Below are positions 3,745-59,321 of a DNA stretch of 64,000 nt, piece after piece; position 1 is the stretch's first letter; each line of letters begins with the position of its first letter. A model generated the notes under the pieces. It saw nothing but the letters and a program-made list of their open reading frames with translations. It did no database searches and was not told the DNA's origin. Source of the DNA: Camelus dromedarius (Eukaryota); assembly GCF_036321535.1 (NCBI RefSeq), contig NC_087436.1, positions 31,498,001 to 31,562,000 of the forward strand, written 5' to 3'. The position numbers and the translations under genes are program-made.

Positions 3745-4580
3745 AGAATATATGATCAGATTTCTGTGTGTCTTCACTTGGATGTCCCACAGGCACTTCA
3801 AATTCAACGTGATCAAAATTTAACTCATCATTGAACCATTCCTTCAAACCTGCCATTTCTAATTCCTCCCACTCTTTTATCCGCCCCACCCCTACCCCCT
3901 GTGCCTACCTCCTAATGTCCTGCAAGGCTAACTACTTTTCCCACTTTTCATTTCCCTAACCCTGTTTCAGGTCATTACCATCTCCCAACTAAATGATTGC
4001 AACTGGACTCCCTCTTCAAACTTGATGAATTTCAGTCCATTCCCTACAGAAATATAAAGTTTTCTAAAACGCAAAGTATATCATGAAGTTTCTTGTTTGT
4101 TTCCTGCTTTTCTTAGAAGAAATTCCCAATCTCCTAAATTTGGTTTAGAAGGTGCTAAGTGATCTGGCTCTTGATTACTTCTTCAGCTTTACTTCAACCA
4201 GTTTTGTTCTCAGGTTCAGGTTCAGCTATACTGAACTTTACTTACAGTTCATCAAATGTGCCCACCACTTCAGAGCCTTTGGTGGGTGCTGTGTCTTCTG
4301 TATGGAACATATTCCCTAACATTGTGGTCTCTATATACATGACCTTGTAGGAAGTCTCTCCAATTGTCTCCAGGTGTAAGTTAGATTGCCCTCCTATATG
4401 GCTCTCTAGTACCCTGTATTTCTCCTATCATTAACTCATCACATAACACATTATGTTCGCAGTAAACTAATTTCTCCACTAACACAAAGGGTAACCATGT
4501 CTTTTTCTCAGTGGTACCTCCAAGTCATACCATATCTGTCACAGATTGAGTATTCAGGAAATGTCTGTTGGTTGATTGAT
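3745..4580 (+). mobile_element. L2 3' portion
   Basis: cacttggatgtcccacaggcacttcaaattcaac ... aaatgtctgttggttgattgat end. Confidence 0.65.
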
Positions 4581-6043
4581 TTATATCAATAGATTGGAGG
4601 CTTTGAGAGATCAGAAGAAGGTATCAAGTTAGATTACTGTGACAGTCTATATTATAATAGATGTTGAAAGCCTAAAAAAGGCAGGAGGACTGATAATATT
4701 TGGGGGATGACTATAATATACTGAAAAATATTTAGTAAAGTATACTGTAAAATATGAGTAACGTATACTAAAATTTACTTTAGAAAGTAAAATTGATATG
4801 ACTTGGTAACTAACTGGATGTAGGAGGCAAGAGAAAAGAGTTAAGGATGATTTCCAGTTTTAAATCTTAATGGTTAGTGATGCCAATAAAAGAAGCAACA
4901 CAAAAGAAATCAGCAAGCTTGTGTGTAGAATAGGTACAATAAGAGTGTAGAGGAAAAATGAGGTCAATTTTTAGTTTCAGGGAAATGTAGGACATACATC
5001 CAACTGCTGACTGAGAATCTCCTACTGGAAGTAAAGCTCCACAAGTTCAGGAAAGAAGTAGGATGAAGAAAAAATTTTGAAAGTCATTGATCTATTGATC
5101 ATAGCTGAAGTCATGGGAATGGATAAAATTATGAAGCAAGAGTATGTGGAGTGAAAAGAGAAAGAATGAAAATGGCACCTGAAGAGCATCAGTTTTAAAG
5201 ATGAGGCTAAAGAATGGAAGCCATAGTACCTCTGGCCAAAAATGGCAAACTGAACACACTCATCTACATTCTCCCCATCCAATCCACACTAAAATAAGGA
5301 TATAGATATTTTTACTTAAAAGTATAACTCATAAGGACAGGCATAACAGGAGTGTGATGAGAAGAAAAGAGCATACAATTTTGTAAGGATTTCAAACATT
5401 TGGACAAATGGTAAATAATTTAGCAAGCTGGAAAAAAAGAAATAGAAAACACCAAAATTTTATCCAGCATTAAGGGTGGCCAAGAACTAAGCCAATTAAT
5501 GTAACATCATCCCACAAGGATCAGTAAGACCTGGCAGCAGTATACACTTCAGAAAGTTGCAGTAATTCTCTCACATATTCAGTGCTTCCATGTAATTTTT
5601 TAGTTTTCAACTCTTAAGTATGAGCAGACAACCAAGTATTACCAACAACAGAGAATTTCTACTATGAAATACAAAAATTGAAACAGACAATTAAACGAAG
5701 GTTGGAGGAGACTGGTTTTGCAGGAAAAAAATCTCCAAAGAAAATTCATATTAATAACCTTAGGCAGAAAATAAATAAAACGCTGCAACCATGTACAAGG
5801 AACAGGATAACATTTTTTTTAAAAGGACATTCTAAGAACAAAAAGAGGGGTAAATTCCTAGAAGATTAGAACACTGACAGTAGAAATAATTAAAAAGATA
5901 AGTTTGAAGAGAAATTTAGAGACTTGTCTAGAAAGTTGGACAAAAAGATAAAAAGATTAAATAAAGATAAGAAAAGTGCCAGTGTGGTCAAGAAGTTATA
6001 CTAACACAAACAGTACAGAGAAAAGAGAGAAGGGACAACCATT

Positions 6044-6572
6044 TGTATGTTTACCATGGCTGCTGTAACAAAGCACCATAAACCTGGTGGCTTAAAATTA
6101 CATAAATGTCATCTCTTTCAGTGCTGTACTGGAGATTAGAAGACTGAAATCAGTGTCATTGGGTTAACATCAAGGTGTTGGCAAGGCTGGTTCCTTCTGG
6201 AGGCTCTAGGGAAGAATTCATTTCCTGCGTTTTCTTGCTTGTAGAAATCACTTGTATTTCTTGCCATGTAGTTTCCTTCCTCCATCCTCAAAGTACATTA
6301 CTCTGAACCTTGTTTCTGTCATCATGTGGCCTTCGCTCTTACTCTGACTCCTTCTGTAAACCTATTATAAAGGACCACTATGATTACATCTGGCCTAGCC
6401 AGATAATCCAGGATAATTTTCCTATCTCAAGATAATTAACTTGACCACATCTGCAAAGTCCTTTTTGACATAGACGGTACGACTTACATGTTCCAGATAT
6501 TAGGATACGGAAATCTTGGAGGTAAAGGGAGTGGTGAGGAGAACCAGAGAGAGCATTATTCAGCCAACCACA
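6044..6572 (-). mobile_element. MLT1 (MaLR) solo LTR
   Basis: TG...CA ends; gctgctgtaacaaa, gttccttctggaggctctagg, ataatccaggataat, cacatctgcaaag motifs. Confidence 0.8.
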
Positions 6573-6819
6573 CTGTTAATGAAATAAACCATGAAAACTT
6601 CCTGCAACTGAAGGATCTGAATTTGGAGATTAAATATACACATTACTTCCCAGCACATTAATGAAAACAGAGACACAATAAAGCACAATGTAGTGAAATT
6701 TTAAAATATCAGAAACATATGAAAATCCTATAGGCTACAGTGTAAACCATAATTACGTAATTCTTCTCAAGAGCACATTGGACATTAGAAAGCATTGGGC
6801 TTTTGCACCATAAACAAAA

Positions 6820-7880
6820 CAAGAACGGGAGAAAATATTTGCAAATGATGCAACTGACAAGAGCTTAATTTCCAGAATATACAAATAGCTCACACAACTT
6901 AATAACAAAAAAAAAAAAAAAAAAAAAAACAACCTAATCCAAAAATGGGCAGAAGACTTAAGCAATTCTTCAGTGAAGACATACAAATGGCCAACAGGCA
7001 CATGAAAAAATGCTCAGTATTGCTAATTATCAGAGAAATGAAAATCAAAACTACAATGAGGTATCACCTTACACCAGTAAGAATGGCCATCATTCAGAAG
7101 ACTACAAATGCTGGTTAGGGTATGGAGAAAAGAGAACCCTCCTACACTGCTGATGAGAATGTAGTTTGGTGCAGCAATTATGGAAAATATTATGGAGATT
7201 CCTCAAAAAACTAAAAACAGATTTACCACATGATCTAGCAATCCTCCTCCTTGGCACATATCCAGAGAGAACTCTAATTCAAAAAGATATATGTACCCCA
7301 ATGTTCATAGCAGCACTATATACAGTAGCCAAGACATGGAAGCAACTTAAATGTCCACCAACAGATGACTGGATATATATATATATATGCAATGGAATAC
7401 TACTCAGCTGTGAAAAAGAATAAAATAATGCCATTTGCAGCAACATGGATGGACCTGAAGATCATCATTCTAAGTGAAGTAAGCTAGAGAAGGAAAGAAA
7501 AAAACCATATCGTATTTTTGTATGTGGAATCTAAAAAAAAAACAAAACCATAAATGAACTTATTTACAAAACAGAAACAGATTCACAGACATAGAGAACA
7601 AACTTATGGTTTTCCAGGGGGGAAAGGGTGTGGGAAGGGACAAATTGAGAGTTAAAAATTTGCAGATACTAACTACTATATATAAAATAGATAAACAACA
7701 AGCTTCTTCTGTATAGCACAGGGAACTATAGTTAATATCTTATAGTAACCTATAATGAAAAAGAACATAGAAAGGAATATATGTATGTATATGTATGATT
7801 GAAACATTATGCTGTACACCAGCAATTGACATACTGTAAACTGACTATACTTCAACTAAAAAAATTTTTTTAATTAAAAA
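6820..7880 (+). mobile_element. 5'-truncated L1 (ORF2 C-terminus plus 3' UTR)
   Basis: ORF 7166-7423 translates to the L1 ORF2p C-terminus (WRFLKKLK...CTPMFIAAL..AKTWKQ.KCP), followed by 3' UTR and A tail. Confidence 0.9.
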
Positions 7881-8089
7881 CATAAAAATTGAGAGAAAAA
7901 AGAAACAGTTTATTGAGCATCTATAGTATGTTAGGCACTGTGCTAAGTACTGGGGAGACTACAGACATGGTAAAGGCTTCCGAAAAAAAAAAAAAGAAGA
8001 GGAAGAAAGAAAGAAAAAAGGCAATGGAAAGGAATTATTTCCAACCTAGTATTCCATAACTAACCAAACTACTATATAAGTGTCAAGTT

Positions 8090-9270
8090 AGTAACCCTGA
8101 TATCCATACCTGACAAAGATATGGCAAGAAATGAAAAGTTAAAGGGCAATATTTCTCATAAATTAAATACTCCTAAATGAAATATTAGCAAATCAAATAC
8201 AGCAATATAGAAATAGGATAAGATATTAACACCAAGTAGAATGCAAGTAGAATGCAATTTAACTCCTAGAATGCAAGGTTAGTTGAACATTTGAATGTAA
8301 TCACAACCAATGTAAATTACCACATTAAAGGAGAAAAACCATTTATCAATGAATTAAGAAGAAGCAATTGATAAAATTCAACATCTATTCATGATAAAGA
8401 CTCTTAGCAAACTAGCAATACAAAAGAACCTTCTCAATCTAATAATGCATTGTTTTGTTTTGTTTTGTTTTTTCTGGTGGACATTGGTAAGCTGATTTTA
8501 AAATTTATATGAAGATGTAGAGGACCCTGAATAGCCAAGACAACCTTAAAGAAGAATTAAGCTAGACGTACACTTCCAGATGTCAAAACTTACTACAAAT
8601 CTATAGCAATCAAGGCTATGTTGATGACGTAAGGATAAGTAAATAGATCAATAGGTCAGAACAGAGTTTAGAAAGAGATCTACACGTAGACAGTCATCTG
8701 ATTTACTCAAAGGTGTCACTGCAGTTTGGTGGGGTACACAATGTTTTTCTCAATAAAGGATGCTGGAGATAGGGTACTCATACGGGAAAAAATGAACCTT
8801 GATCCATACTTTACATCTATTCAAATAATTAATTCAAGTAGATCATAAACCTAAATTTAAATGTGAATATTTTAAAGCTTCTAGGAGAAAATATAATATT
8901 TTGTGATTTATTCATACAATGTAATATTAAGTACCAAAAAATTATAAAACATTGGTAAACTCAGTAATATGAATGAGTATCAAAAACATATGGAGTGAAA
9001 AAAACATAAATGCAAAAAAGCACACACTATATGATTCTATGTTTATGAGGTTCAAAAGGGCAAAATTAATCCAAGTCATAGTAGTCAGAATAATGGTAAC
9101 TCCCTAAGAGTGACTATTGACTAGGATCGGGCACTAAGAAACCTTTTGACTGATGGAAATGTTCTGTATCTTCATTTGGGTGGTGTATACAGGTATATAC
9201 ATATTTTAAAAACCGTACATTTAAGATTTGTGCAACTTACTATATATAAATTTTACCTTGATAAAATTTG
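8090..9270 (+). mobile_element. Old degenerate L1 ORF2 and 3' end fragments
   Basis: gataaaattcaacat..ttcatgataaa, aatagccaagacaa, cttactacaa..ctatag.aatcaag, gatggaaatgttctgtatctt. Confidence 0.65.
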
Positions 9271-15995: not shown

Positions 15996-17349
15996 TGACA
16001 GAAGTTTGTTGTTTTCCCTACTACCTATATCCTTGAGAACAACTGTCAAGCACTCTTGATTGATTATGGTGACTGGTTAAGAAACAACTAATTTTCCTTG
16101 AAACTCTCTTATCACCACATCAGAGAACAGAGGGATAAATATAAAATGAATGCCTTCTCCCCTTAGAATTCCAGGACCATTTGACTATTCCTTCAGAATG
16201 GGATCAAATATATTGTTCGTACTTGTCCTAACACTTGTCATACTGTTTTATCCCTGTCACTCAAGGTTTCAATTATCAATATGAAACATAATTTGTATGT
16301 TTAAATTTACATATTTCCTCACCCCAAATCACCCAACTGATCCTCAGAAAAATCTGTTAAGCCCTAAGGATAAAAATTACTTAGACATCTGATTTTAAAG
16401 CTTGCTAAATTTCCTGTTTCAAGCCATGGATACCAATCCTAAAGAAGTTATTGACATAAAGTTACTTTAAAGAATAATCTGGTCCTGAGAATATGCTATT
16501 GAGCAGACAAGTGGTAGAACATTTTTTCCTGCCAGCCTTCATACATTCGTGTATCTAGTAGTTCAATTCATAATCATTTAATAAAGTGAACATTTGCAGT
16601 CTTAAATATTAAGAAAGAAACAGGTTATTAAATGTTAAAACCCTACTTGCATTTAGCCATGTTTAAAAAAATAATCCCAGGAATATTGTAATGAGTGTAG
16701 GTTTAGGCGCAAGCATTGTGCAAGTTAATGTAAGTAAAGAACCTTTCATGTGAAATGATGTAGTGTCACAACTCATTTGCGTCCCACTTAAAGTGTAATT
16801 AAGTTTCTCTGACAGCATGGCTTATGGCTGAAAGAACAGACCTGGCTGCTAAATTAATCCAGAGTCCCTCAGTTAATAACACTCAGCAAAGAAAACTTTA
16901 CACACTCTTTCATTTAAAGTTCCCAAACTCCCATTCACAGAAGTGTATGACAATGCAGCCCTACAGAGAAACCTTGGTATGAAACTGATGGCCTTTTGCC
17001 AGACAGATTTAATCATCAAAACACCTGAAAACCAGACTTTGATGAATCAGGATGTGAGAATACACTATTTTCACTCCAGCTATTTTGGTCTGAAGGGGGT
17101 GGTTTCACATTTAAATTTCATTGCACCATATATTTAAACTGTAGTATGTTCTCAAAGTTAAATATGAAATGTTGGGAATTTTTAGATTTATAACAGAACT
17201 GGGGCTTACCATAGTAAGTGCTCAGAAATAATGGAATTTGGTTTTTTCATTCATTCTTTCAGGACCTGAGTACTTCATATAAGTGAAGATGCTGTTCATT
17301 AAATTTTTTGTTTGTTTGTTTGCTATTGTCATTGTTTGTTTTAAGAAAA

Positions 17350-17870
17350 GATATGATATATACGTATACATCAGAATACTATTCAGCCATAAAAAAGAAT
17401 AAAATAATGTCATTTGCAGCAACATGGATGGACCTGGATCATCTTACTAGGTCAGACAGAAAAAGACAAATACTCATACAACGTCACATATATGTGGAAT
17501 CTTAAAAAAAAAAAAAAGACTCAAATCAAATTATTTACAAAAAAGAAACAGACTCACAGACATAGAAATCAAACTTGTGGTTACCCGGGGGAAAAGGCTG
17601 AGGAGGGAGTGGAGAGATAAACTGAGACTTCAAGATTTGCAGATACTAACTACTATATACAAAATAGATAAATAGGAAGGTCCTACTGTATAGCACAGGG
17701 AACTATATTCAATACCTTATAATAGCCTATAATAAAAAAGAATACATATAATATGTATAACTGAATCATTATGCTGTATACCAGCAATACCACAACACTG
17801 TAAACTCACTATACTCAAATTTAAAAAAAATGAAAAAAAAATAAAATAAAAATAAAAGCAAAATAGAATA
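17350..17870 (+). mobile_element. L1 3' end
   Basis: gaatactattcagccataaaaaag...tactgtatagcacagggaactatattcaata...A tail. Confidence 0.85.
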
Positions 17871-19189: not shown

Positions 19190-19325
19190 TTATGAGTTAT
19201 AGCCCATGTTGTCAGAATGTAAAGGATCGCAGCAAAGCTCTTTCCACAGCTCTGAGTCTGGCTGCTCCCAGTCGTCTCCGATAATCCACTTCAGGTTGAA
19301 AGGTTTAAAATACTCAAAGCGATGG
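19190..19325 (-). CDS. C4orf33-like terminal exon E: (F)HRFEYFKPFNLKWIIGDDWEQPDSELWKELCCDPLHSDNMGYNS*
   Basis: Acceptor ttttttcctatgtgacctgaag|C, TAA at 19192-19190. Matches C4orf33 FH.LEYFK.FN....G.EW.QP.S.LW. Confidence 0.88.
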
Positions 19326-20663: not shown

Positions 20664-20863
20664 AAGTTAGGCCCTTGTCCATCCTCAATCTCTTCATGTG
20701 GTGTTGAATAAAAGGCTTCATAAATTCTTCCAATCCCCAATCCATGAATTGCATATAAATTCATTTTATCAATACCAGGTGGAAAATATTCCCAAGGAAG
20801 AAATTTAATCCCATTCCATTGCTTGCAGGTAATGTTGACTTTCAATTGTAAACTCAGCTCTTT
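20664..20863 (-). CDS. C4orf33-like exon D (200 nt): KELSLQLKVNITCKQWNGIKFLPWEYFPPGIDKMNLYAIHGLGIGRIYEAFYSTPHEEIEDGQGPN
   Basis: Acceptor cctaactatgaaag|AAA, donor AACTT|gtaagt. 66 codons plus 2 nt, open, with LPW.YFPP, AIHG and YEA motifs. Confidence 0.9.
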
Positions 20864-31434: not shown

Positions 31435-31848
31435 TCACGAATGGATAAAGGAAATGTGGTATATGTATACAGTGAAATACTATTCAGACTTTTAAAAAGA
31501 AGTAAATTCTGCAATATATAACAAAATGGATGGATTTTGAGGACATTATGCTAAGTGAAATAACAAGCCAGTCACAGAAAGACAAATACGGTAAAATTCC
31601 ATTTATGCGAGGTATTCAAAATAGTCAGCTTCACAGAATCAAAGAATAAAATCCAGGGTTTGGGGGAATGGGAATTGGGGAATTACTAATCAGTAAGCAT
31701 AAGTTTCAGTTTAGCAAAATGAATAAGCTCTAGAGATCTGCTGCACATTATACCAACAGTCAACAATAACATAATAAACACTTAAAAATTTAAAAGAGTA
31801 GATCTCATGATTTTTGTTCTTACCACAATATTTTTTTTTTTAAAAAAG
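31435..31848 (+). mobile_element. L1MA-type 3' end
   Basis: gaatggataaaggaaatgtggt...gacattatgctaagtgaaat...gatctcatg..gttcttaccacaat. Confidence 0.8.
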
Positions 31849-33784
31849 GGCTATATCCAGCATGGTTCTGAGGAAAACAAATGATAGATAATAAATTATT
31901 CTTTTACTATTAAGAAAAAGACTATTATCTTCCTTCCTATCTCTCTTTTTTTTTTTTATTGCCAATGCTTAGTCTTCTTAAATTTTTCTACTCACTACCA
32001 CTTTGAAGTAACAGTCCTGGAAATATTTTACAATGTAAGATCAATAATGCAAATGTCCTCCAATTCAAAAAGTCTCCCATTACTTTTTCTTAAACAAAAT
32101 AGCCAAGAGACCTTGGGTCAATTTTTGTTATTTCCCCTTGCTCCAAAACTTAAATAACAAATCAAAATAAAACAAGGCTTCCTAACAGAGTGTGCAATCC
32201 TTTGTAAACTCCAGGGGTTGAGACCACTGTTCCTGCAGTAGGTGTGGTCCTGTACTGAGAATTTTGCTTCTAGAGTTAGAAAAGAACTCCTCAATACTGT
32301 GTTACACTTTTTATAGACAGGTCATTGTTTCAGCTCTTAAATCCTGTATTTCTACCACTGTAAGCAAGTTTACAACAGGCTTCTGGTTTTTTCTTTGCTT
32401 TCCTATTTTCTGAAAAGTTTGAAACCAATAGAATACAAATGTGAAAAGCTGACCAAAGTTAGGATTGTAATCTATAGTCATGGACCACACAAAGGATCAA
32501 ACCTCTAATCTTGGCCTTCTTAGCACACTCTTTGACTGAGATATCCTTGACAACAAAAAGTTTATGTCTGAATATATTACTGCGAGAAAAAAGAGATACA
32601 TCATCTACTGTGTCTTTTCTTAACAATTAAAAAGGAACTACCAAAACACAGACTTAGTATTTCAATATGAAAACTAAAAAAAGCAGCTAAAACTCTTGAA
32701 AGCAATTGCCCATGGAAAGACTGCAGTGAAGAATAATGAGTCAAAGAAATATTGTATTTAGTCCTATAAGCCTTTTAGTTGATTTTTAAATCATGTGCAT
32801 TTTACAAATAATTTTTATAATAATAAAGTTGCTTTTTTAAAAATTATGGAAACTATCTGATTGTCCACCAGTTGAGGAACATATGATTTGATGTCTTATA
32901 ATAAGATATGTGAACCATTACAAAATATATGACTTTGCAAAATATTTGACTTTTGCCATATTTATATATAACTGACCTAGATTACATTTACAAAAACATC
33001 TTAGTTAATGGCTCTTCCCAATTCATTAAGAACAGACCATTTCACAAACTTTTAAAATATTTTTTAAAAAAACAATTTATATGGAAACAAACATGTTAAA
33101 AAAGCAAGAAAATACTATAGAAATGATACTGACCAACTTTAGACTAATGAAAGTCACAAAAACTGGAAAAGGTAGGAAGAAGGAAAAAAAAAAGGAATGG
33201 TAAGGGATAAGAGTAGGGTATTGGCTGCATCTATAAAGATTTATTTTTTAATATCTGTCAAATCCTTTTGATGGGGAATGTTAGATCTAAGTGGTAGATG
33301 TCATATTTACTGTACTTTTCAGTTATTTTGAAATATTTTTTCACTTCTTAAAAAAATTCCACCTTCATTGTTCAAAGTGTCCTCAGTTTATATGAAATTT
33401 TCCAACTAAATACACTATTCTCTGCTGCTCCTTTTAGAGAAGTGTGTAGAAACTTCAATCTCAGAAGAGCAGTTATCATTACTAAACACAATGTGCAAGA
33501 GCACATGTAAAACAACAAGCCGTATTAATAATCTACCCGTATACCAGCCACACCAGTGATATATCAAAAAATATATCTATATTTGCCTCATGCATTTCAG
33601 CCCTACTCAAGCCCTTGGCCTCTCTTATTTTGCTTCCTCTTCCCCCAACTTTGAGAAGGAAATGAAAGTTAAACACCAAGTATGTAAAAATTCAAATTTC
33701 CAAAATCATGCAAACCTACATTTTAAAATATAGCCATTGTAAAACAAAGGTAGATTTTATTCAGTAAAGATGTGTTGTACTCAC

Positions 33785-33833
33785 TGCAAATGCATCACCA
33801 CTGGAGAGCAGTAAGACCAGGTGCTGTCTGTGC
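33785..33833 (-). CDS. C4orf33-like exon C (49 nt): (L)HRQHLVLLLSSGDAFA
   Basis: Acceptor tctttttgtttgcttag|G, donor GCA|gtgagt. Matches C4orf33 PHGQHLVLLLSG. Phase 2 to 0. Confidence 0.88.
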
Positions 33834-34889: not shown

Positions 34890-35545
34890 TTTTCTTTCTT
34901 TTTAAATTCAATTTATTTAAACTTAAAAAAACCCAAAACAGTTCATCCATTTCTCCCACCCCCCAACCCCCACCTCTGGCAACCGCCAATCTATTTTCTG
35001 TATCTGTGAGCTTAGAACATCTTTCTGTCTCTTTCCATCTATCAATATAGACAGATAGATAATTTTAGATTCCTCATATAAGGGAGATAATCAGATAATT
35101 GTCTTTCTCTATCTGACTTATTTCACTTAGTATAATGCCCTTGAGGTCTATTCATGTTGCACAAGTGGCAAGACTGTATTCTTTTTTATGGCTGAATAAT
35201 ATTCCATTGTATATATATGCCACATCTTTATATATTCATCTATCAGTGAACACTTAGATTATTTCCATGTCTTGGCTGTTATAAGTAATGCTACAATAAA
35301 CATGCAGGTGCACGTATTTTTTCAAATTAGTGTTTTCATTTTCTTCAGATAAACACCCAGAAATGGAATTGATGGGTCATATGATAGTTCTACTTTCAAT
35401 TTTTTGAGGAACTTCCATATTGTTTTCCATAGCAGCTGCACCAATTTACATTCCCACCAACAGTATGCAAGGGTTCCCTTTTCTCTTCATCCTTGCTAGT
35501 CTTCTTGATAACAGCCATTCTAAGAGGAGTGAGGTAGTATCTCAT
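34890..35545 (-). mobile_element. L1 3' end
   Basis: tctgacttatttcacttag, ttttttatggctgaataatattccattgt, catttacattcccaccaacag. Confidence 0.8.
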
Positions 35546-39245: not shown

Positions 39246-41033
39246 GTTGCCATTCTCATTCTCTAAAACAACTGATGCTGCAATTAGCAGATCCTAGGTT
39301 TCACCAGCGTGACTTGGCAACAACAATACAGTGCTTTAAAATGCCTCGTTGATTAGCTTATTTTATCATCTCACACTTTGCTTCAATGAAAGGATCAGAA
39401 CTGCCTGATTGGTGCACAAAAGTTCTGGTGTACATATCCAAATTGATGAAGCATTTTAGCAGTGTGAGTAATGCCAAAGCCAAGAGTAGAATGGTGGTTC
39501 CCTCTGCCACTTATCCTTTTTCCTCTAAGGGAAAGGAATGCAATGGAAAGCAAATTTTTACTGGGAACTTGGGATTTGAGACAGAAGGACTCTAATGCTG
39601 ATTGCTTCCTGCTCATTTTCTACAATATGATAGTGTGCTCAAAAAAAAAAAAAAAGCTACACTGTGATTCCAGAGATCACATGCTGAAATATGCAGAAGA
39701 CCAGGCATGCACTGTAACTACGAGAAGCACTCTTTGAGTATAAGCACTTAAATTCAAAATTGTAAAAACACACTATAAAAAACATACTATAAGCAAAAAC
39801 AAAAAACAAAAAGCAAAAAACAAAAACAAAAACAATCTGTTGGTCACATTCAGCCACTGAGATGCCTGGTTATACATCCAAAGGGTGAACAGTGATTTTA
39901 TCTGGGTAGTAGTATCACAGATGATTTTCATTTGTATATGTGCCTTTTATTATCTTTTAAGTGCTTTACAATGTATATGATTTTCTTTTATCATCAAAGG
40001 AGAAAAATCCCACAAAATATGTGATTTAAAAAAAAAAAAATAGGTTCAGTGACTTGGCTACACCTAACTGAAGCTGCTCATTTGTTACATTGAAGAAAAT
40101 CACAAAACAAGCCTTGCGAGAAGAGGCCAGAATGAACAAGCACCCTAAGGAACAACTTTTACCAAAATAGATGACCAAAATACCATGATTTAGATGACTG
40201 GCTGTCACAGAGAGAAGTCCAGTACCGCACTTTCACAGGCAGAATGTGGAGTGATTCAAACAGACCGAACATGCTAAGTGCTGTTTAAGTGTGGTAAAAC
40301 TGCATTTAACAATCCAAAATTACTACCTAAAGAGTTCTTTCTTTCTTTAATGCTATACCCATGCAATATGTCTCTAAACCGTACTCCTTGACTGAGCATC
40401 TTTACAGATAGCAATACTGTTTTTCCAGCACAGTAAGGGCCAGAAGAATCCATAAAGTCTTTACAGACTTCGTGAAGAAATGGGTGACGCCCTGGACAGG
40501 GTTAAATAGATGGGTTTAAATTTTAAAAGTTTAAAGTTTAAAAAAATGCTTTAGAGCACAGAACTCATCTCATTAGGAAATTAGCTTCTAAACTTGGTTT
40601 GCTTGTTGGCTCAGTCTATAAAGCATATAGATGGGTTGGCGTGTGTGTGTGTCAAACTTACTCAGTGGAGTTGAATTAGGGATTACAAATATCCTAAAAA
40701 ACATTGGGTATCATAACTATGTGAGAAGCTCTCTCTAATTTTGATATCTGTAAGACTAGTTTCATGAAAAAACATCAATTATGATGAATTTAAATCAGGA
40801 AGTAGGTCAACCGTAAGGAAATATCATCATCTCAGTCACCTGTGTGATTCTGCATAGTCTACCTACTTTAATGCTTCTAACTTTGTATGATGTCTATAAT
40901 AATAAATGTGGGTGGGACTCACATACATTTTGCAACCCAAATAGAATGTTTAAGAGTTTAATGTTTTTTTAAAACTATTTGGAAAGCTAGCCTAAAGTAG
41001 CAAGCAGTCTGTGTGAGTTAAAAGAGAACTTAC

Positions 41034-41093
41034 AGGTAGAGTTCCACCTCCAGGTACTGTTTAGTCTTGCTGTTCAAAAAAAAAATTCAACAA
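41034..41093 (-). CDS. C4orf33-like exon B (60 nt, 61 needed): VVEFFF[fs]LNSKTKQYLEVELY
   Basis: Acceptor ttttttatttgcag|TT, donor TACCT|gtaagt. Matches C4orf33 VVEAFFLN...QYLEVELCP. The T10 run (+ strand A10 at 41076-41085) gives in-frame TGA at 41076-41074. Confidence 0.85.
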
Positions 41094-41160
41094 CTGCAAA
41101 TAAAAAACAATCATCGTATTGAGAAATTTAATCTGGAAAGAGTCGAGAAAGTAAACATTT

Positions 41161-41722
41161 AGAGAGGTTGCCAAGTGGGAACTCAGGAAGCCAGACTGGG
41201 AGAAGAATTGCAGAGCATGGATGTTGTCAGAGGCTCCATCTCCTGCACTGGCCGTTCACGGAGGGGGACCACCTGCCAGACGCAGACCTTGGTGCTCAAA
41301 CATCCCCGCGGGCATCTGAGGATAACATCCTGAAACCACAAAGAGTCAGGACAAGAATCCTGACTGTGTGATCCCCACCCCTCCCTCCTGGCCATGGAGT
41401 CTGCTGTCACCTCATGTCCTCCACACCTGGGTTGCTATTTTCAGTCCTTGCCTAACATCTGAGGGGAAATGGAAGCTCCGGGGACTCCAAGTGAGTTCAC
41501 CGATGCCTTTAATTACACTTCAAATCCAGAAGGGGTCTGCCCTGACAGTGCACTCTGTTAATTCACCCTTACCGTGGTGACGACCCAAAACGTGAAACAC
41601 CCCACAGGAATTCTGTTTTAGTCAAATAGAAAAAGCTAATTCCAGTAGGGCTATCATAAAAATGTTACAAGGCAAGTTCATAAATTTTGATTAAAAAAAT
41701 GAATTCCTCTTTAAAAAAAAAG
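41161..41722 (+). pseudogene. Processed retrocopy of the 3' end of an unidentified mRNA
   Basis: GC-richer 560-bp block, ATTAAA at 41690-41695, A9 tail at 41713-41721, 14-bp TSD gaaagtaaa(c/t)attt at 41147-41160 and 41723-41736. Confidence 0.75.
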
Positions 41723-42795: not shown

Positions 42796-43338
42796 GCTGT
42801 CCAGCTGAGGACAGAGATTCTGCTCAGGGCATCCTACGCACTGGAGTGTCTCCATTCTTCTACCCCTACCTTGTTAAGACTGTGACTTTCAAATGCCAAG
42901 AAGGCTTGAGAACCAGGAGAATTCATACATCTCCAAATATTTCTGGTTAAGGACACGTTACTGCTAGTGTAAGATTTTCTTGAATGATAACTTAAATCCC
43001 AACCATAAAAGGCCACCGCATAACAAATCATTCACCTTCTGAGACCCTTCATGACTGAGCCCTGCTAGGACTGTGTCATTACCAAGACTTTGGGGTCCAA
43101 AAGAAGCTGCTGAGAGAGCTCCTGTATTTTCTCCTGCTTTGTATGTGCTTGTTTCTGCCAGATTTCTGTATTCATTGTTTTTACAAATAAGGAAATTAAT
43201 GTAATTAATTATATTGGGATTTGAATGGCACAGAGGAGGGGAGTTCTTTCTATCTGTAGCTAAACAGATACACTATAGCAAAAAAGTGCCACAACATATG
43301 CACAAAATGAATATTAATTGTTAGCTTTCATTCCCATT

Positions 43339-45182: not shown

Positions 45183-45363
45183 CTTCATACTTCCAGAGTC
45201 CATCAAAAGGTTGTCCTGCTTCATGATGTGGTGCTGGGGGATCATCAAAGAAAGGAGCATTCAGGTCCATCAGTAAGCCTTGGACCCCAGATCTAAACTT
45301 GGGAGTCATAGGCCTTTGCAGCACTGGTAAACTGTCCCACATGGTGGTAATTCTATATTCCAA
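45183..45363 (-). CDS. C4orf33-like exon A (181 nt): LEYRITTMWDSLPVLQRPMTPKFRSGVQGLLMDLNAPFFDDPPAPHHEAGQPFDGLWKYE
   Basis: Acceptor ctgtttcattttgacag|TTG, donor GAAG|gtgaga. 60 codons plus 1 nt, collinear with C4orf33 residues 1-60. Confidence 0.9.
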
Positions 45364-50846: not shown

Positions 50847-50904
50847 CTCTCCTCTTCCAGTTGGCAGTTGTTCTCTTTCTTGGTTACTTTTGAAAATTTC
50901 AGTC
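50847..50904 (-). CDS. Internal exon of unidentified upstream gene: (G)LKFSKVTKKENNCQLEEE(S)
   Basis: Acceptor ttttcttatcattattttaaag|GA, donor GAG|gtaaga. 58 nt, phase 1 to 2, open, purine-rich. Confidence 0.7.
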
Positions 50905-54481: not shown

Positions 54482-54521
54482 CTGTTTGGTAAAGAGCAGC
54501 ATGCAGGGACTCAACAGCATG
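54482..54521 (-). CDS. Internal exon of unidentified upstream gene: HAVESLHAALYQT(G)
   Basis: Acceptor cctaattcttattgcag|CAT, donor ACAG|gtattt. 40 nt, phase 0 to 1. Only this frame stays open into the next exon. Confidence 0.65.
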
Positions 54522-55527
54522 CTGCAATAAGAATTAGGATCAAGACTGCCTTCATTTTAAAAAATTTAAAACAAAAATACATTTTGAACATTATTTATAT
54601 CTTAATATATCTCAGCAAGGTTAAGGCATTAAGTTTCATTATTTACTAGAAAGTTTATGATTGATAATGTTTACTGTCCTTGGTTGTGTTCATTTATTGG
54701 TAATGATATCAGATCAGTGTGGCAAATATATGGTCAGAACAAGGTGGCAAGACTAATATCACACAGCTTAACTCTGAGAGGGCCACTATATAGTCAATAT
54801 AAGCAATGCTTACTTCTCTTAATATTGTTTGTTCTTTTAAAACATTATGAGAGTGTTATTAATGGAGGGAAACTCTCCGTTTATCTTCTCATTATTTGAG
54901 TAAGTCTAGGGGAAGTATTTTCAGCAACTCTTAACTTACAACCAGCCTTTAGCCTTATTATGATATTTGTTGTAGCTATTGCACTAAAATCTTCATTAGG
55001 AAACAGATCATCATTAATTAAATTATTTTCATTTATTCAAAATTATTTCTAGGGCCTATTGAAACAAAGCATTTAGCTTATACTGCAGTGGGGAAAAAGC
55101 AAATTAGGCACTAATCACGTTCCCAAGAAGCTCACAGTTTAGTTGAGAGATAACTGAATAGATAAATCAAAATGCAAAAATGATAAAATGCAGTAAGAAA
55201 GATATACAGAAATAAAGCTTACAAAATTTGGGGGAAGAGAGTTTACTAGCAACAGAACAAGAACATTGAAGGTTGGATGGGATGTGGGCATGTTCTAAGA
55301 AAAACGATTTAATTCACTCATGTTTGGGCAAATTACTCTATTGGACACTAATTTAGATTTGTCCACTCTGTGAGAGAAAACTGAAAAAAAAAATGTGGTA
55401 ATTTCCTTCCCCACTAACCAAAATATGGTCAGGCTATATGATACAGTTTTGAACTTCTTCACTCTTGCACTGCAGGGCCTAAAGCAGAAGTTACCAGGAA
55501 CCTAGAATTCAATCAACACATCCAGTT

Positions 55528-57239: not shown

Positions 57240-59010
57240 CCAGAATGAAAATTTAACCTGATGGGGTTGACAGCAGACTAGACACCGCAAAGGAAGGTTC
57301 AGTGGATGTGAAGACACTCTTAAATAAGGCACAGAGAAGAAAAGACTGGAAAAGAAATGACTGGAATCTCAATGACTTATGTAACTAAATTAAGCAGGCT
57401 TGACTGAGGAGAAAATAGAACAGAAAAAAGTATTTTTTAAAATTAATGGCTAAAAGTTTTCCAAGTTTTATTAAAACTACAACTCAGAGATCCAAGAAGC
57501 TAACAAAACCCCAGTTAACATAAATACCAAGAAATCCGTACCATGGCACATCATAAACACATTGCCAAAACCCTGTGATAAGAGGAAAATCGCAAAAGTG
57601 AGTGAGCAAATTAAAAAAAGATTACAAACAAAGGAAAAAAGAATATAGCACACTGTATTAGAATATGCATAAATAAGAAGGAAGTGCGGTCGTATCTTTG
57701 TAACACTGAAAGTAAAAGTCAACTGAGAATTCCATGACCAGTGAAACTATCTTTCAAAAATTAAAGTAAGATAAAGACTTCTCAGAAAAGAAATTCTATG
57801 AGAATTCATCTCAGCAGACCTATACTCTAGTAAATATTAGAGGAAGTTCTTGAAGCAGAAGAAAATGATGCCAGAGAGGGGGAAAAAACACCTTTAAAAT
57901 TCAAAAGAGTGAACAGTGCTAGAAGTGGTAAGTGTGTGAGTAGATACAAAAAAACTTACTATTCTCTATTTTTAAAAAATTTATAAAATATAATTGACTA
58001 ATAGAAGCAAAAATAAAAACAATGTTTTATGGATAGAAGAGTAAAATAATGTATTCTAGTTGTATATTATATTGTGAATTCGAAGAGTAAAAGTTACAAA
58101 GCATTTACTCTTTGAAAGATATGTTTAAGAAAATGAAAAGGCAAGCCAAGCCATAGACTGGGAGAAATTACTTGCAATACATATATTTGTCTAAGGACTC
58201 GTATCCAGAATATATTTTTCAAAACAGCTGAATTATAAAAAGACAAACAAAAATTGGCAAAATATTTGAATAGACACTTCACAAAATAAAATACATGAAT
58301 GGCCAGTAAGCACATGAAAACACAAATCAAAATTATTGGTCAGCCAAGAAATAAAATTTAAAATCACACTTGAGAAACCAGCCTACCCATACTTGAAGGT
58401 TTAAAATTTAAAAGACTGACAATACCAAGGTTGGTGAAAATGTGAAACAACTAAAATTGTCATGTATTGTTAGTACTATAAAATGGTAAAGCCACTTTGC
58501 AAATAATTTATCATTTTCTTAGAAGGACAACATATAGTTACCACATGATCCAGTAATTTCGCTCTCAGATATTTACCAAAGAGAATTAATAACATGTTTG
58601 CAAAAATACTCATATACAAATGTTCATAGCACCTTTATGCAAAATAGCCAGCATCTGGAAGCAACTCAAATGTCTACCAATAGGTGAATCAATAAAGAAA
58701 TTACAGTATATCCATACAATGGAATATTTCTGAGCAATAAAAAGGAACAAACTACGGACATGCAACAACACAGATATATTTCAAAAACATTGTGCCAGTG
58801 ACAGACCCCAGACAGAAAAGATTGGAACTACAGTATATAATTATAATTATATGAAAGTTCTAGGAAAGGCAAAACTGTACGGAAAGAAAATAAACTAGTT
58901 GTTGCTTGCGTATGAGGGTGGGAGCAGGGATTGGCTACAGACAGGCACAGGAGATGTTTTAAAGTAATCAAATTATACATTTTATTTTTTGTAAATTTTA
59001 CCCAAATTAT
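57240..59010 (+). mobile_element. Old L1 (ORF1 remnants and 3' end)
   Basis: tctttcaaaaattaaagt, agcagacctatact, tatttgaatagacacttcac, atgttcatagcacctt, atccatacaatggaata. Confidence 0.7.
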
Positions 59011-59218
59011 ATTGTTTTTAAAAAGTAGAACCTGCCTTCTGTTTAGAGAACAGGTATGGGGTGAGGATACAAGGGAGCAGGGCAAGGGGAACAGCAGGGA
59101 GACTCGTTCTTTTCAAAGACGACAGTAATAATTCAGGGTTGCAAAATTGCAACAATCCAGGAAAGATGATAGTGGTTTGGGCTACAGTGGTAGTAATGAA
59201 GGTGTTAAGAAGTGGTGA

Positions 59219-59321
59219 ATATGAAAATGAATATATGTATGTATATGCATGACTGGGACGTTGTGCTGTACACCAAAAATTGACACATTGTAATTGACTG
59301 TACCTCAATTAAAAAAAAAAA
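59219..59321 (+). mobile_element. Very short L1 3' end inserted in an L2
   Basis: L1 terminal sequence plus A tail, 12-bp TSD aagaagtggtga at 59207-59218 and 59322-59333. Confidence 0.85.

Follow-up and report, generated by a model that had tools for sequence, protein, structure and literature searches.

The 64,000-nt stretch of dromedary DNA analyzed here (the window) very probably holds the camel ortholog of an unnamed tandem paralog of C4orf33, a member of the UPF0462 family, which has long since decayed into a unitary pseudogene of seven exons with two lesions: a TGA at codon 15 and a frameshift in exon B. As expected of a unitary pseudogene, it has ORF-disrupting lesions, a preserved exon-intron structure, and an intact ortholog in outgroups (tamandua, marsupials, turtles, alligator, lizards, and amphibians). 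The lesion is ordinary, and the interest lies in an undescribed paralog and its pattern of loss. Human- and mouse-based catalogues would miss this gene, which is hidden under the automatic name of C4orf33. The locus also carries a caution: read against C4orf33 alone, it appears as a five-exon gene with one doubtful lesion.

Gene structure and identity of the locus

A query with exon D returned four proteins among nine candidates (from pig, tamandua, wallaby, and opossum), three of which carry the name "UPF0462 protein C4orf33 homolog," and was followed by tblastn against the window. An earlier note on this DNA had described a five-exon gene; with the tamandua ortholog (P0003) as the query, tblastn added two upstream coding exons. 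The seven coding exons lie on the minus strand and span 35 kb, with six GT-AG introns, matching phases, and all 12 splice dinucleotides intact. Given seven exons separated by GT-AG introns, the locus is not a retrocopy.

Coding exon 1 (54482..54555, 74 nt; 72% to tamandua residues 1 to 25, E 9e-5), absent from the first model of the gene, comprises an ATG, a hydrophobic, signal-peptide-like segment, and a GT donor. It contains the TGA at codon 15 (54511..54513, minus strand, in a single assembly), a second ORF-breaking lesion beside that of exon B, which had been taken for the only one. Coding exon 2 (50847..50904, 58 nt), also previously unnoticed, has intact AG and GT borders and is used in camel RefSeq models P0278 to P0281 and P0319. 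Exon A (45183..45363, 181 nt) is the first exon of the UPF0462 domain and carries T52M, H60Q, V63M, V78L, G91H, and E102K. In exon C (33785..33833, 49 nt), the C-P-H-G-Q-H motif that crosses the B/C junction reads Y-L-H-R-Q-H. Exon D (20664..20863, 200 nt) carries F148L, A161K, S183L, L192F, and I195T, and exon E (19190..19325, 136 nt) carries L211F and M223I and ends in a TAA five codons before that of tamandua. This early stop may be harmless, as marsupial and reptile proteins are even shorter. Exons A, C, D, and E hold no stop or frameshift, as had been reported. Elsewhere in the window, dispersed repeat fragments that are 69 to 85% alike occur at 664-1195, 7056-7878, 17347-17831, 35063-35545, and 58619-59318, and a peptide at 35486-35325 resembles LINE-1 ORF2.

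Pfam searches of eight window ORFs gave nothing save one match at E 0.15. The locus is recognizable as a UPF0462 member by similarity over the whole domain and by common exon phases. In a quick IQ-TREE phylogeny of 41 rows, the family splits into canonical C4orf33 and a second clade, and the window groups with pig, cat, and tamandua among the mammals of the second clade (SH-aLRT 99) and not with mammalian canonical C4orf33. The intact paralog resembles C4orf33 in its five-exon core, the phases of that core, its 61-nt exon B, and 55 to 60% protein identity. It differs in its separate clade, in having two extra 5′ exons and a hydrophobic N terminus, both of which canonical C4orf33 lacks, and in the absence of a full-length boreoeutherian model among the matches listed. 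Databases place both genes under the one automatic name "UPF0462 protein C4orf33 homolog." No C4orf33 exons were found within the window, where canonical queries match only the exons of the paralog. C4orf33 and the paralog lie on one contig in coelacanth, caecilian, lizards, and dunnart, and read-through models (turtle, frog, lizard, and cats) put C4orf33 upstream; from these other species, we infer that the paralog lies in tandem downstream of C4orf33.

Proteins of ray-finned fish, which lack a hydrophobic start, join the paralog clade (SH-aLRT 99) and not tetrapod C4orf33; the duplication may be older than the split of bony fishes, unless this quick tree is wrong. In a scan with a pig exon-A fragment, 72 candidates yielded 2 loci, and neither is a mammalian paralog. 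A five-exon, bird-like canonical C4orf33 gene lies at 3796-8236 of a JGI metagenome contig (L001); it is probably host carry-over and served solely as an exon-length control. In the literature on C4orf33 and UPF0462, we found no account of the paralog, and gene-loss supplements may list it under a LOC number. The supplement of PMC11789784 does not mention the gene, and the consulted sections of PMC9004415 mention C4orf33 just as the gene closest to fossil transposons.

Exon B and the A10 run

On re-reading, we found both the A10 run at 41076..41085 (plus strand; T10 on the coding strand) and the reading of exon B that had been reported around it. Exon B (41034..41093, minus strand) begins ag|TT GTT GAA TTT TTT TTT TGA and has GT-AG ends, with an AG acceptor before 41093 and a GT donor beyond 41034. 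The claimed 1-nt shortfall also holds, as the exon measures 60 nt where its canonical C4orf33 counterpart (L001 5870-5930) measures 61 nt, and one more base would link exon A (phase 1) to exon C (phase 2), restoring the phase as proposed. The frameshift leads into a TGA at codon 111 (41074..41076, minus strand), about 290 nt upstream of the last junction, and a transcript with this stop is predicted to be a decay target. The length of the run is unremarkable for this window, where 20 of the 44 homopolymers of at least 8 nt reach at least 10 nt.

The lost base was probably a C in a Ser codon, not an eleventh T. The earlier note had supplied an eleventh T and read V V E F F F L N, which places Phe at column 108. 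None of 97 homologs has Phe there (57 have Ser, 35 Ala, 2 Thr, 2 Cys, and 1 Val), and the residue is Ser in pig and tamandua. By the simplest route, an ancestral GAA TCT TTT TTT TTG, reconstructed from these residues, would have lost the C of TCT, which gives exactly T10. Because pig exon B stays in frame, with its Ser at column 108, the frameshift is specific to the camel side, and we propose a real 1-nt deletion there that would have left the A10. The suggestion that reads with A11 would refute pseudogene status is too narrow, because A11 yields a Phe unseen in the family and leaves the codon-15 stop in place. In support of the earlier note, camel transcripts that begin with MLQPL bypass exon 1, and in these the run is the only frame break.

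Counted from exon 2 in a translation of the window, the product has 85 residues when exon B is retained and 90 to 98 residues when B, B and C, or B through D are skipped. Rescue through exon skipping was rejected on the shortness of these skipped products. A degenerate exon-B motif gave no matches in metagenome contigs.

The window and dromedary RefSeq model P0280 agree at every residue across exons 2, A, and C; wild camel models differ from the window at two residues. All seven camel-type models (six read; P0325 only listed) skip exon B or stop before it. The camel models are stubs of 103 to 128 amino acids in which exons 1 and B are skipped, and the wild camel models likewise lack exon B. 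Because wild camel model P0279 joins A to C to D exactly at the exon boundaries of the window, the camel locus is likely still transcribed. Camel models have an alternative first exon (MLQPL) in frame to exons 2 and A, which was sought and not found in the 64-kb window. The protein collection contains no camelid model with exon B or D in frame and no full-length camelid paralog from any assembly.

Camel RefSeq models also use a cryptic terminal exon at 31785-31866 (minus strand), where the dromedary model, like the window, ends after TMLDIALF and the wild camel model continues; the difference lies at a T/A homopolymer junction near 31831-31847. Cryptic exons at 41259-41330 and 42901-42954 (both minus strand), in the A-B intron, occur in camel model P0319 and match pig P0322. 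We take those in the A-B intron to indicate that this dead gene is loosely spliced.

Public sequencing runs bear on whether the A10 is real. We sampled 136 31-mers from positions 40500-41700, and 6 of the 14 runs of organism A, from four studies, contain all 136. Five of these six carry a flag that marks them as potential sources of the window's DNA. The other eight runs stand at 0.98, with about three words missing somewhere in the 1.2 kb, and some of them come from samples with other runs at 1.00. This pattern points to heterozygosity at one site or to a gap in coverage within the 1.2 kb, at the run or elsewhere. An A11 allele would remove twenty 31-mers, 2.3 of the sampled words on average, and if sampling is random, the chance that no run-spanning word was sampled under A11 is 0.085. 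These k-mer shares, in which run length is not counted directly, favor a true A10.

It is improbable, in our estimate, that the gene is dead but the run itself is a slippage polymorphism (A10/A11 or A9) or a miscall in the assembly. Ten-base homopolymers slip easily, and the number of words missing from the eight runs at 0.98 is near the number that A11 would remove. A SNP anywhere, however, costs an average of 3.6 sampled words, and many other sites in the 1.2 kb are candidates. Run X6, the one of the six not flagged as a source, has every word, and a T11 would require the Ser-to-Phe change that no homolog has. Low-share runs X19 to X23 were excluded as evidence; among them, X19 and X20, RNA runs labeled reproductive system, contain fractions of 0.67 and 0.41 of the words from this mostly intronic interval, which could be read as pre-mRNA or DNA carry-over.

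Probable loss of constraint and age of the decay

Independently of the two lesions, the coding sequence appears to have lost its constraint. Departures were counted with X placed at breaks and with each intact protein left out in turn. Of 60 columns that are invariant in 31 intact paralogs, the window is altered at 6, and of 103 with conservation of 90% or more, at 19. The corresponding counts for intact proteins are 0 to 3 and 0 to 7, with the aberrant turtle model P0033 an outlier (7 and 10). Residues H60, C124, and P125, invariant in 97 of 97 homologs from both clades, read Q, Y, and L in the window, and the near-invariant G127, L192, and L211 are also changed.

Differences between window and pig fall at 14 of 87 conserved and 14 of 73 variable columns (ratio 0.84, p 0.68). 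The ratio is 0.95 without two artifact columns, 45 (the pig start codon) and 108 (the break), which were dropped in second tests. All eight intact pairs give ratios of 0.10 to 0.24 (p at most 0.014), with P0033 left out of this comparison for its aberrant exon C. By this protein-level proxy, purifying selection seems to have been lost.

The changes found only in the window point the same way, with 9 of 13 at conserved columns (p 4e-5 under intact-type constraint). Nine further changes are common to pig and the window and absent in nine intact mammals, and five of these (H60Q, V63M, P125L, G127R, and A150V) are at conserved columns (p 0.009 to 0.03). Because the cat keeps H60 and V63, at least H60Q and V63M postdate the carnivore split. 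Loss of constraint probably began before the pig/camel split: it likely slackened on the artiodactyl stem, as H60Q, P125L, and G127R in common with pig suggest, after which drift of the camel copy is likely. In exon A, six of the seven window-only changes occur also in Camelus ferus, and the wild camel and the dromedary separated 4.4 to 8 million years ago, according to the consulted part of PMC5577142. These comparisons support a loss of constraint that predates the dromedary/wild-camel split.

Compared with pig, 28 of 160 exon codons differ, against 28 of 85 triplets when the neighboring intron is treated as coding (p 0.01). Two to three lesions are seen versus about 10 expected had the camel branch been neutral since the pig split, an expectation that assumes an indel rate of 0.08 per substitution. 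With so few lesions, intact splice sites, and exons that diverge less than the intron, the gene has not been dead since that split; death before the pig/camel split was downgraded because too few lesions are present. If roughly half of the camel branch (d 0.051, interval 0.033 to 0.084, of about 0.095) was neutral, 5.6 lesions are expected, which is compatible with the number seen (P(<=3) 0.19). Given a pig/camel split of 55 to 60 million years in the consulted part of PMC3514880, drift of the camel copy likely occupied about half of the interval since then, on the order of 20 to 45 million years. The figure is rough, as it derives from protein sequences, a yardstick of 85 codons, and Logan fragments that we took to be from pig. 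These fragments supply pig exon C and, over exons A and B, differ from the named pig protein at one residue.

The earlier note had proposed recent pseudogenization. The pseudogene stands; "very recent" does not, because invariant sites are altered and most exon-A changes are common to the wild camel, and neither does the run as the only lesion. We accordingly consider it very unlikely that a signal-less protein from the alternative first exon worked until the T run slipped. Such a history would account for the intact splice sites, the few lesions, exon divergence of about half the intron yardstick, and the in-frame joining of the MLQPL exon to exons 2 and A in camel models. It is at odds with the changes at H60, C124, and P125 and at G127, L192, and L211, with conserved sites that are not spared, with exon-A changes shared mostly with the wild camel, and with wild camel models that also lack exon B.

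Least credible of all is a long-read homopolymer error in an intact gene: homopolymers are the usual place of assembly errors and the shortfall lies in one, but exon 1 has a second, substitution-type stop, six runs hold 136 of 136 sampled words, the protein collection offers no full-length camelid model, the pattern of change is neutral-like, and a gene with altered invariant residues is not otherwise intact.

Predicted product and pattern of loss

An intact product of 234 to 257 amino acids is predicted to have a signal-peptide-like start followed by one CBM9/DOMON-like beta-sandwich; we infer that it would be secreted and would bind glycans. The signal peptide was judged by a hydropathy proxy and not by SignalP. 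All 17 full-length members of the paralog clade that were tested have a hydrophobic N terminus (window-of-9 hydropathy, 2.2 to 3.3), versus 0.0 to 0.9 in nine canonical or fish proteins, and exon 1 of the window reaches a maximum of 3.63.

AlphaFold2 modeled the tamandua ortholog from a 97-row alignment as a twelve-strand sandwich with a low-confidence N terminus (mean pLDDT 86.6). Foldseek and VIA-align agree on the likeness of this sandwich to CBM9/DOMON folds. The putative carbohydrate-binding Bacteroides protein BACUNI_03838 (4jpq) matches at Foldseek E 6e-6 (VIA-align Z 14.2, rmsd 3.5, 172 aligned), the CBM9 of Thermotoga Xyn10A (1i82) matches at E 2e-3 (Z 11.6, rmsd 3.7, 157 aligned), and heme-binding DOMON domains come next (Z 7 to 9). 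Identity to the UPF0462 paralog is low (8 to 15%), and a common fold alone proves no function. By sequence, Pfam assigns no family to three of three paralogs and gives CBM9_2 at E 0.43 for bat C4orf33, a PDB sequence search with P0003 gave no match at E 1, and CBM9_2 occurs on 11% of the members of the Atlas neighbor cluster.

Domain partners offer only a hint of carbohydrate binding. In a scan of 32 long homologs, CBM_14 matches occur in five (one above the cut-off), GNAT in four, and ShK in two. Proteins P0131, P0132, P0134, P0139, and P0150 combine UPF0462 with chitin-binding peritrophin-A matches, with up to five UPF0462 copies per protein; P0227, P0241, P0243, and P0257 combine it with GNAT, and P0151 and P0161 combine it with ShK repeats. 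A secreted, CBM9-like member would offer a route to a ligand for the uncharacterized UPF0462 family.

A search with P0003 gave 254 matches, and the distribution of the paralog, which rests on annotated proteins and not genomes, is drawn from the best 120. Among these, full-length paralogs occur in amphibians, turtles, alligator, lizards, marsupials, and tamandua, and aardvark, tenrec, and golden mole have partial models or models that are odd at the 5′ end. No full-length boreoeutherian paralog is present in these 120, though one would be expected near the top. The paralog thus appears to be conserved from amphibians to anteaters and broken in all boreoeutherians seen, and its loss map would be a new marker for placental gene loss.

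More speculatively, and with considerable doubt, we suggest that the gene could be an overlooked vertebrate secreted CBM9-like lectin, the tandem twin of C4orf33 with chitin-binding partners in invertebrates. Xenarthra, Afrotheria, marsupials, reptiles, and amphibians would have kept it; boreoeutherians (cats, pig, and camels) would have lost it separately and at different times, tracking diets that left insects behind, which would place it in the class of CHIA and TREH. Tamandua and aardvark retain CHIA copies, whereas cetartiodactyls and carnivores have lost them (PMC5955627, in the part consulted), and TREH (PMC6759077) likewise belongs among the diet-linked unitary pseudogenes of placental mammals. 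The paralog is similarly intact in tamandua, modeled in aardvark, tenrec, and golden mole, and broken in camel and cats; unlike these genes, it is also intact in the herbivorous wallaby and wombat. Because these two keep the gene and no insect-eating boreoeutherian model is among the matches listed, a clade-wide relaxation would fit at least as well as diet.

The boreoeutherian traces consist of a pig fragment, the camel stubs, and the tails of cat read-through models. Cat exon A has one codon deleted and departs at 11 of 28 conserved columns. Pig exons A to D (P0002, P0158, and P0226) have no stop or frameshift, and in them P89, F109, and P164, invariant in 97 of 97 homologs, are changed.
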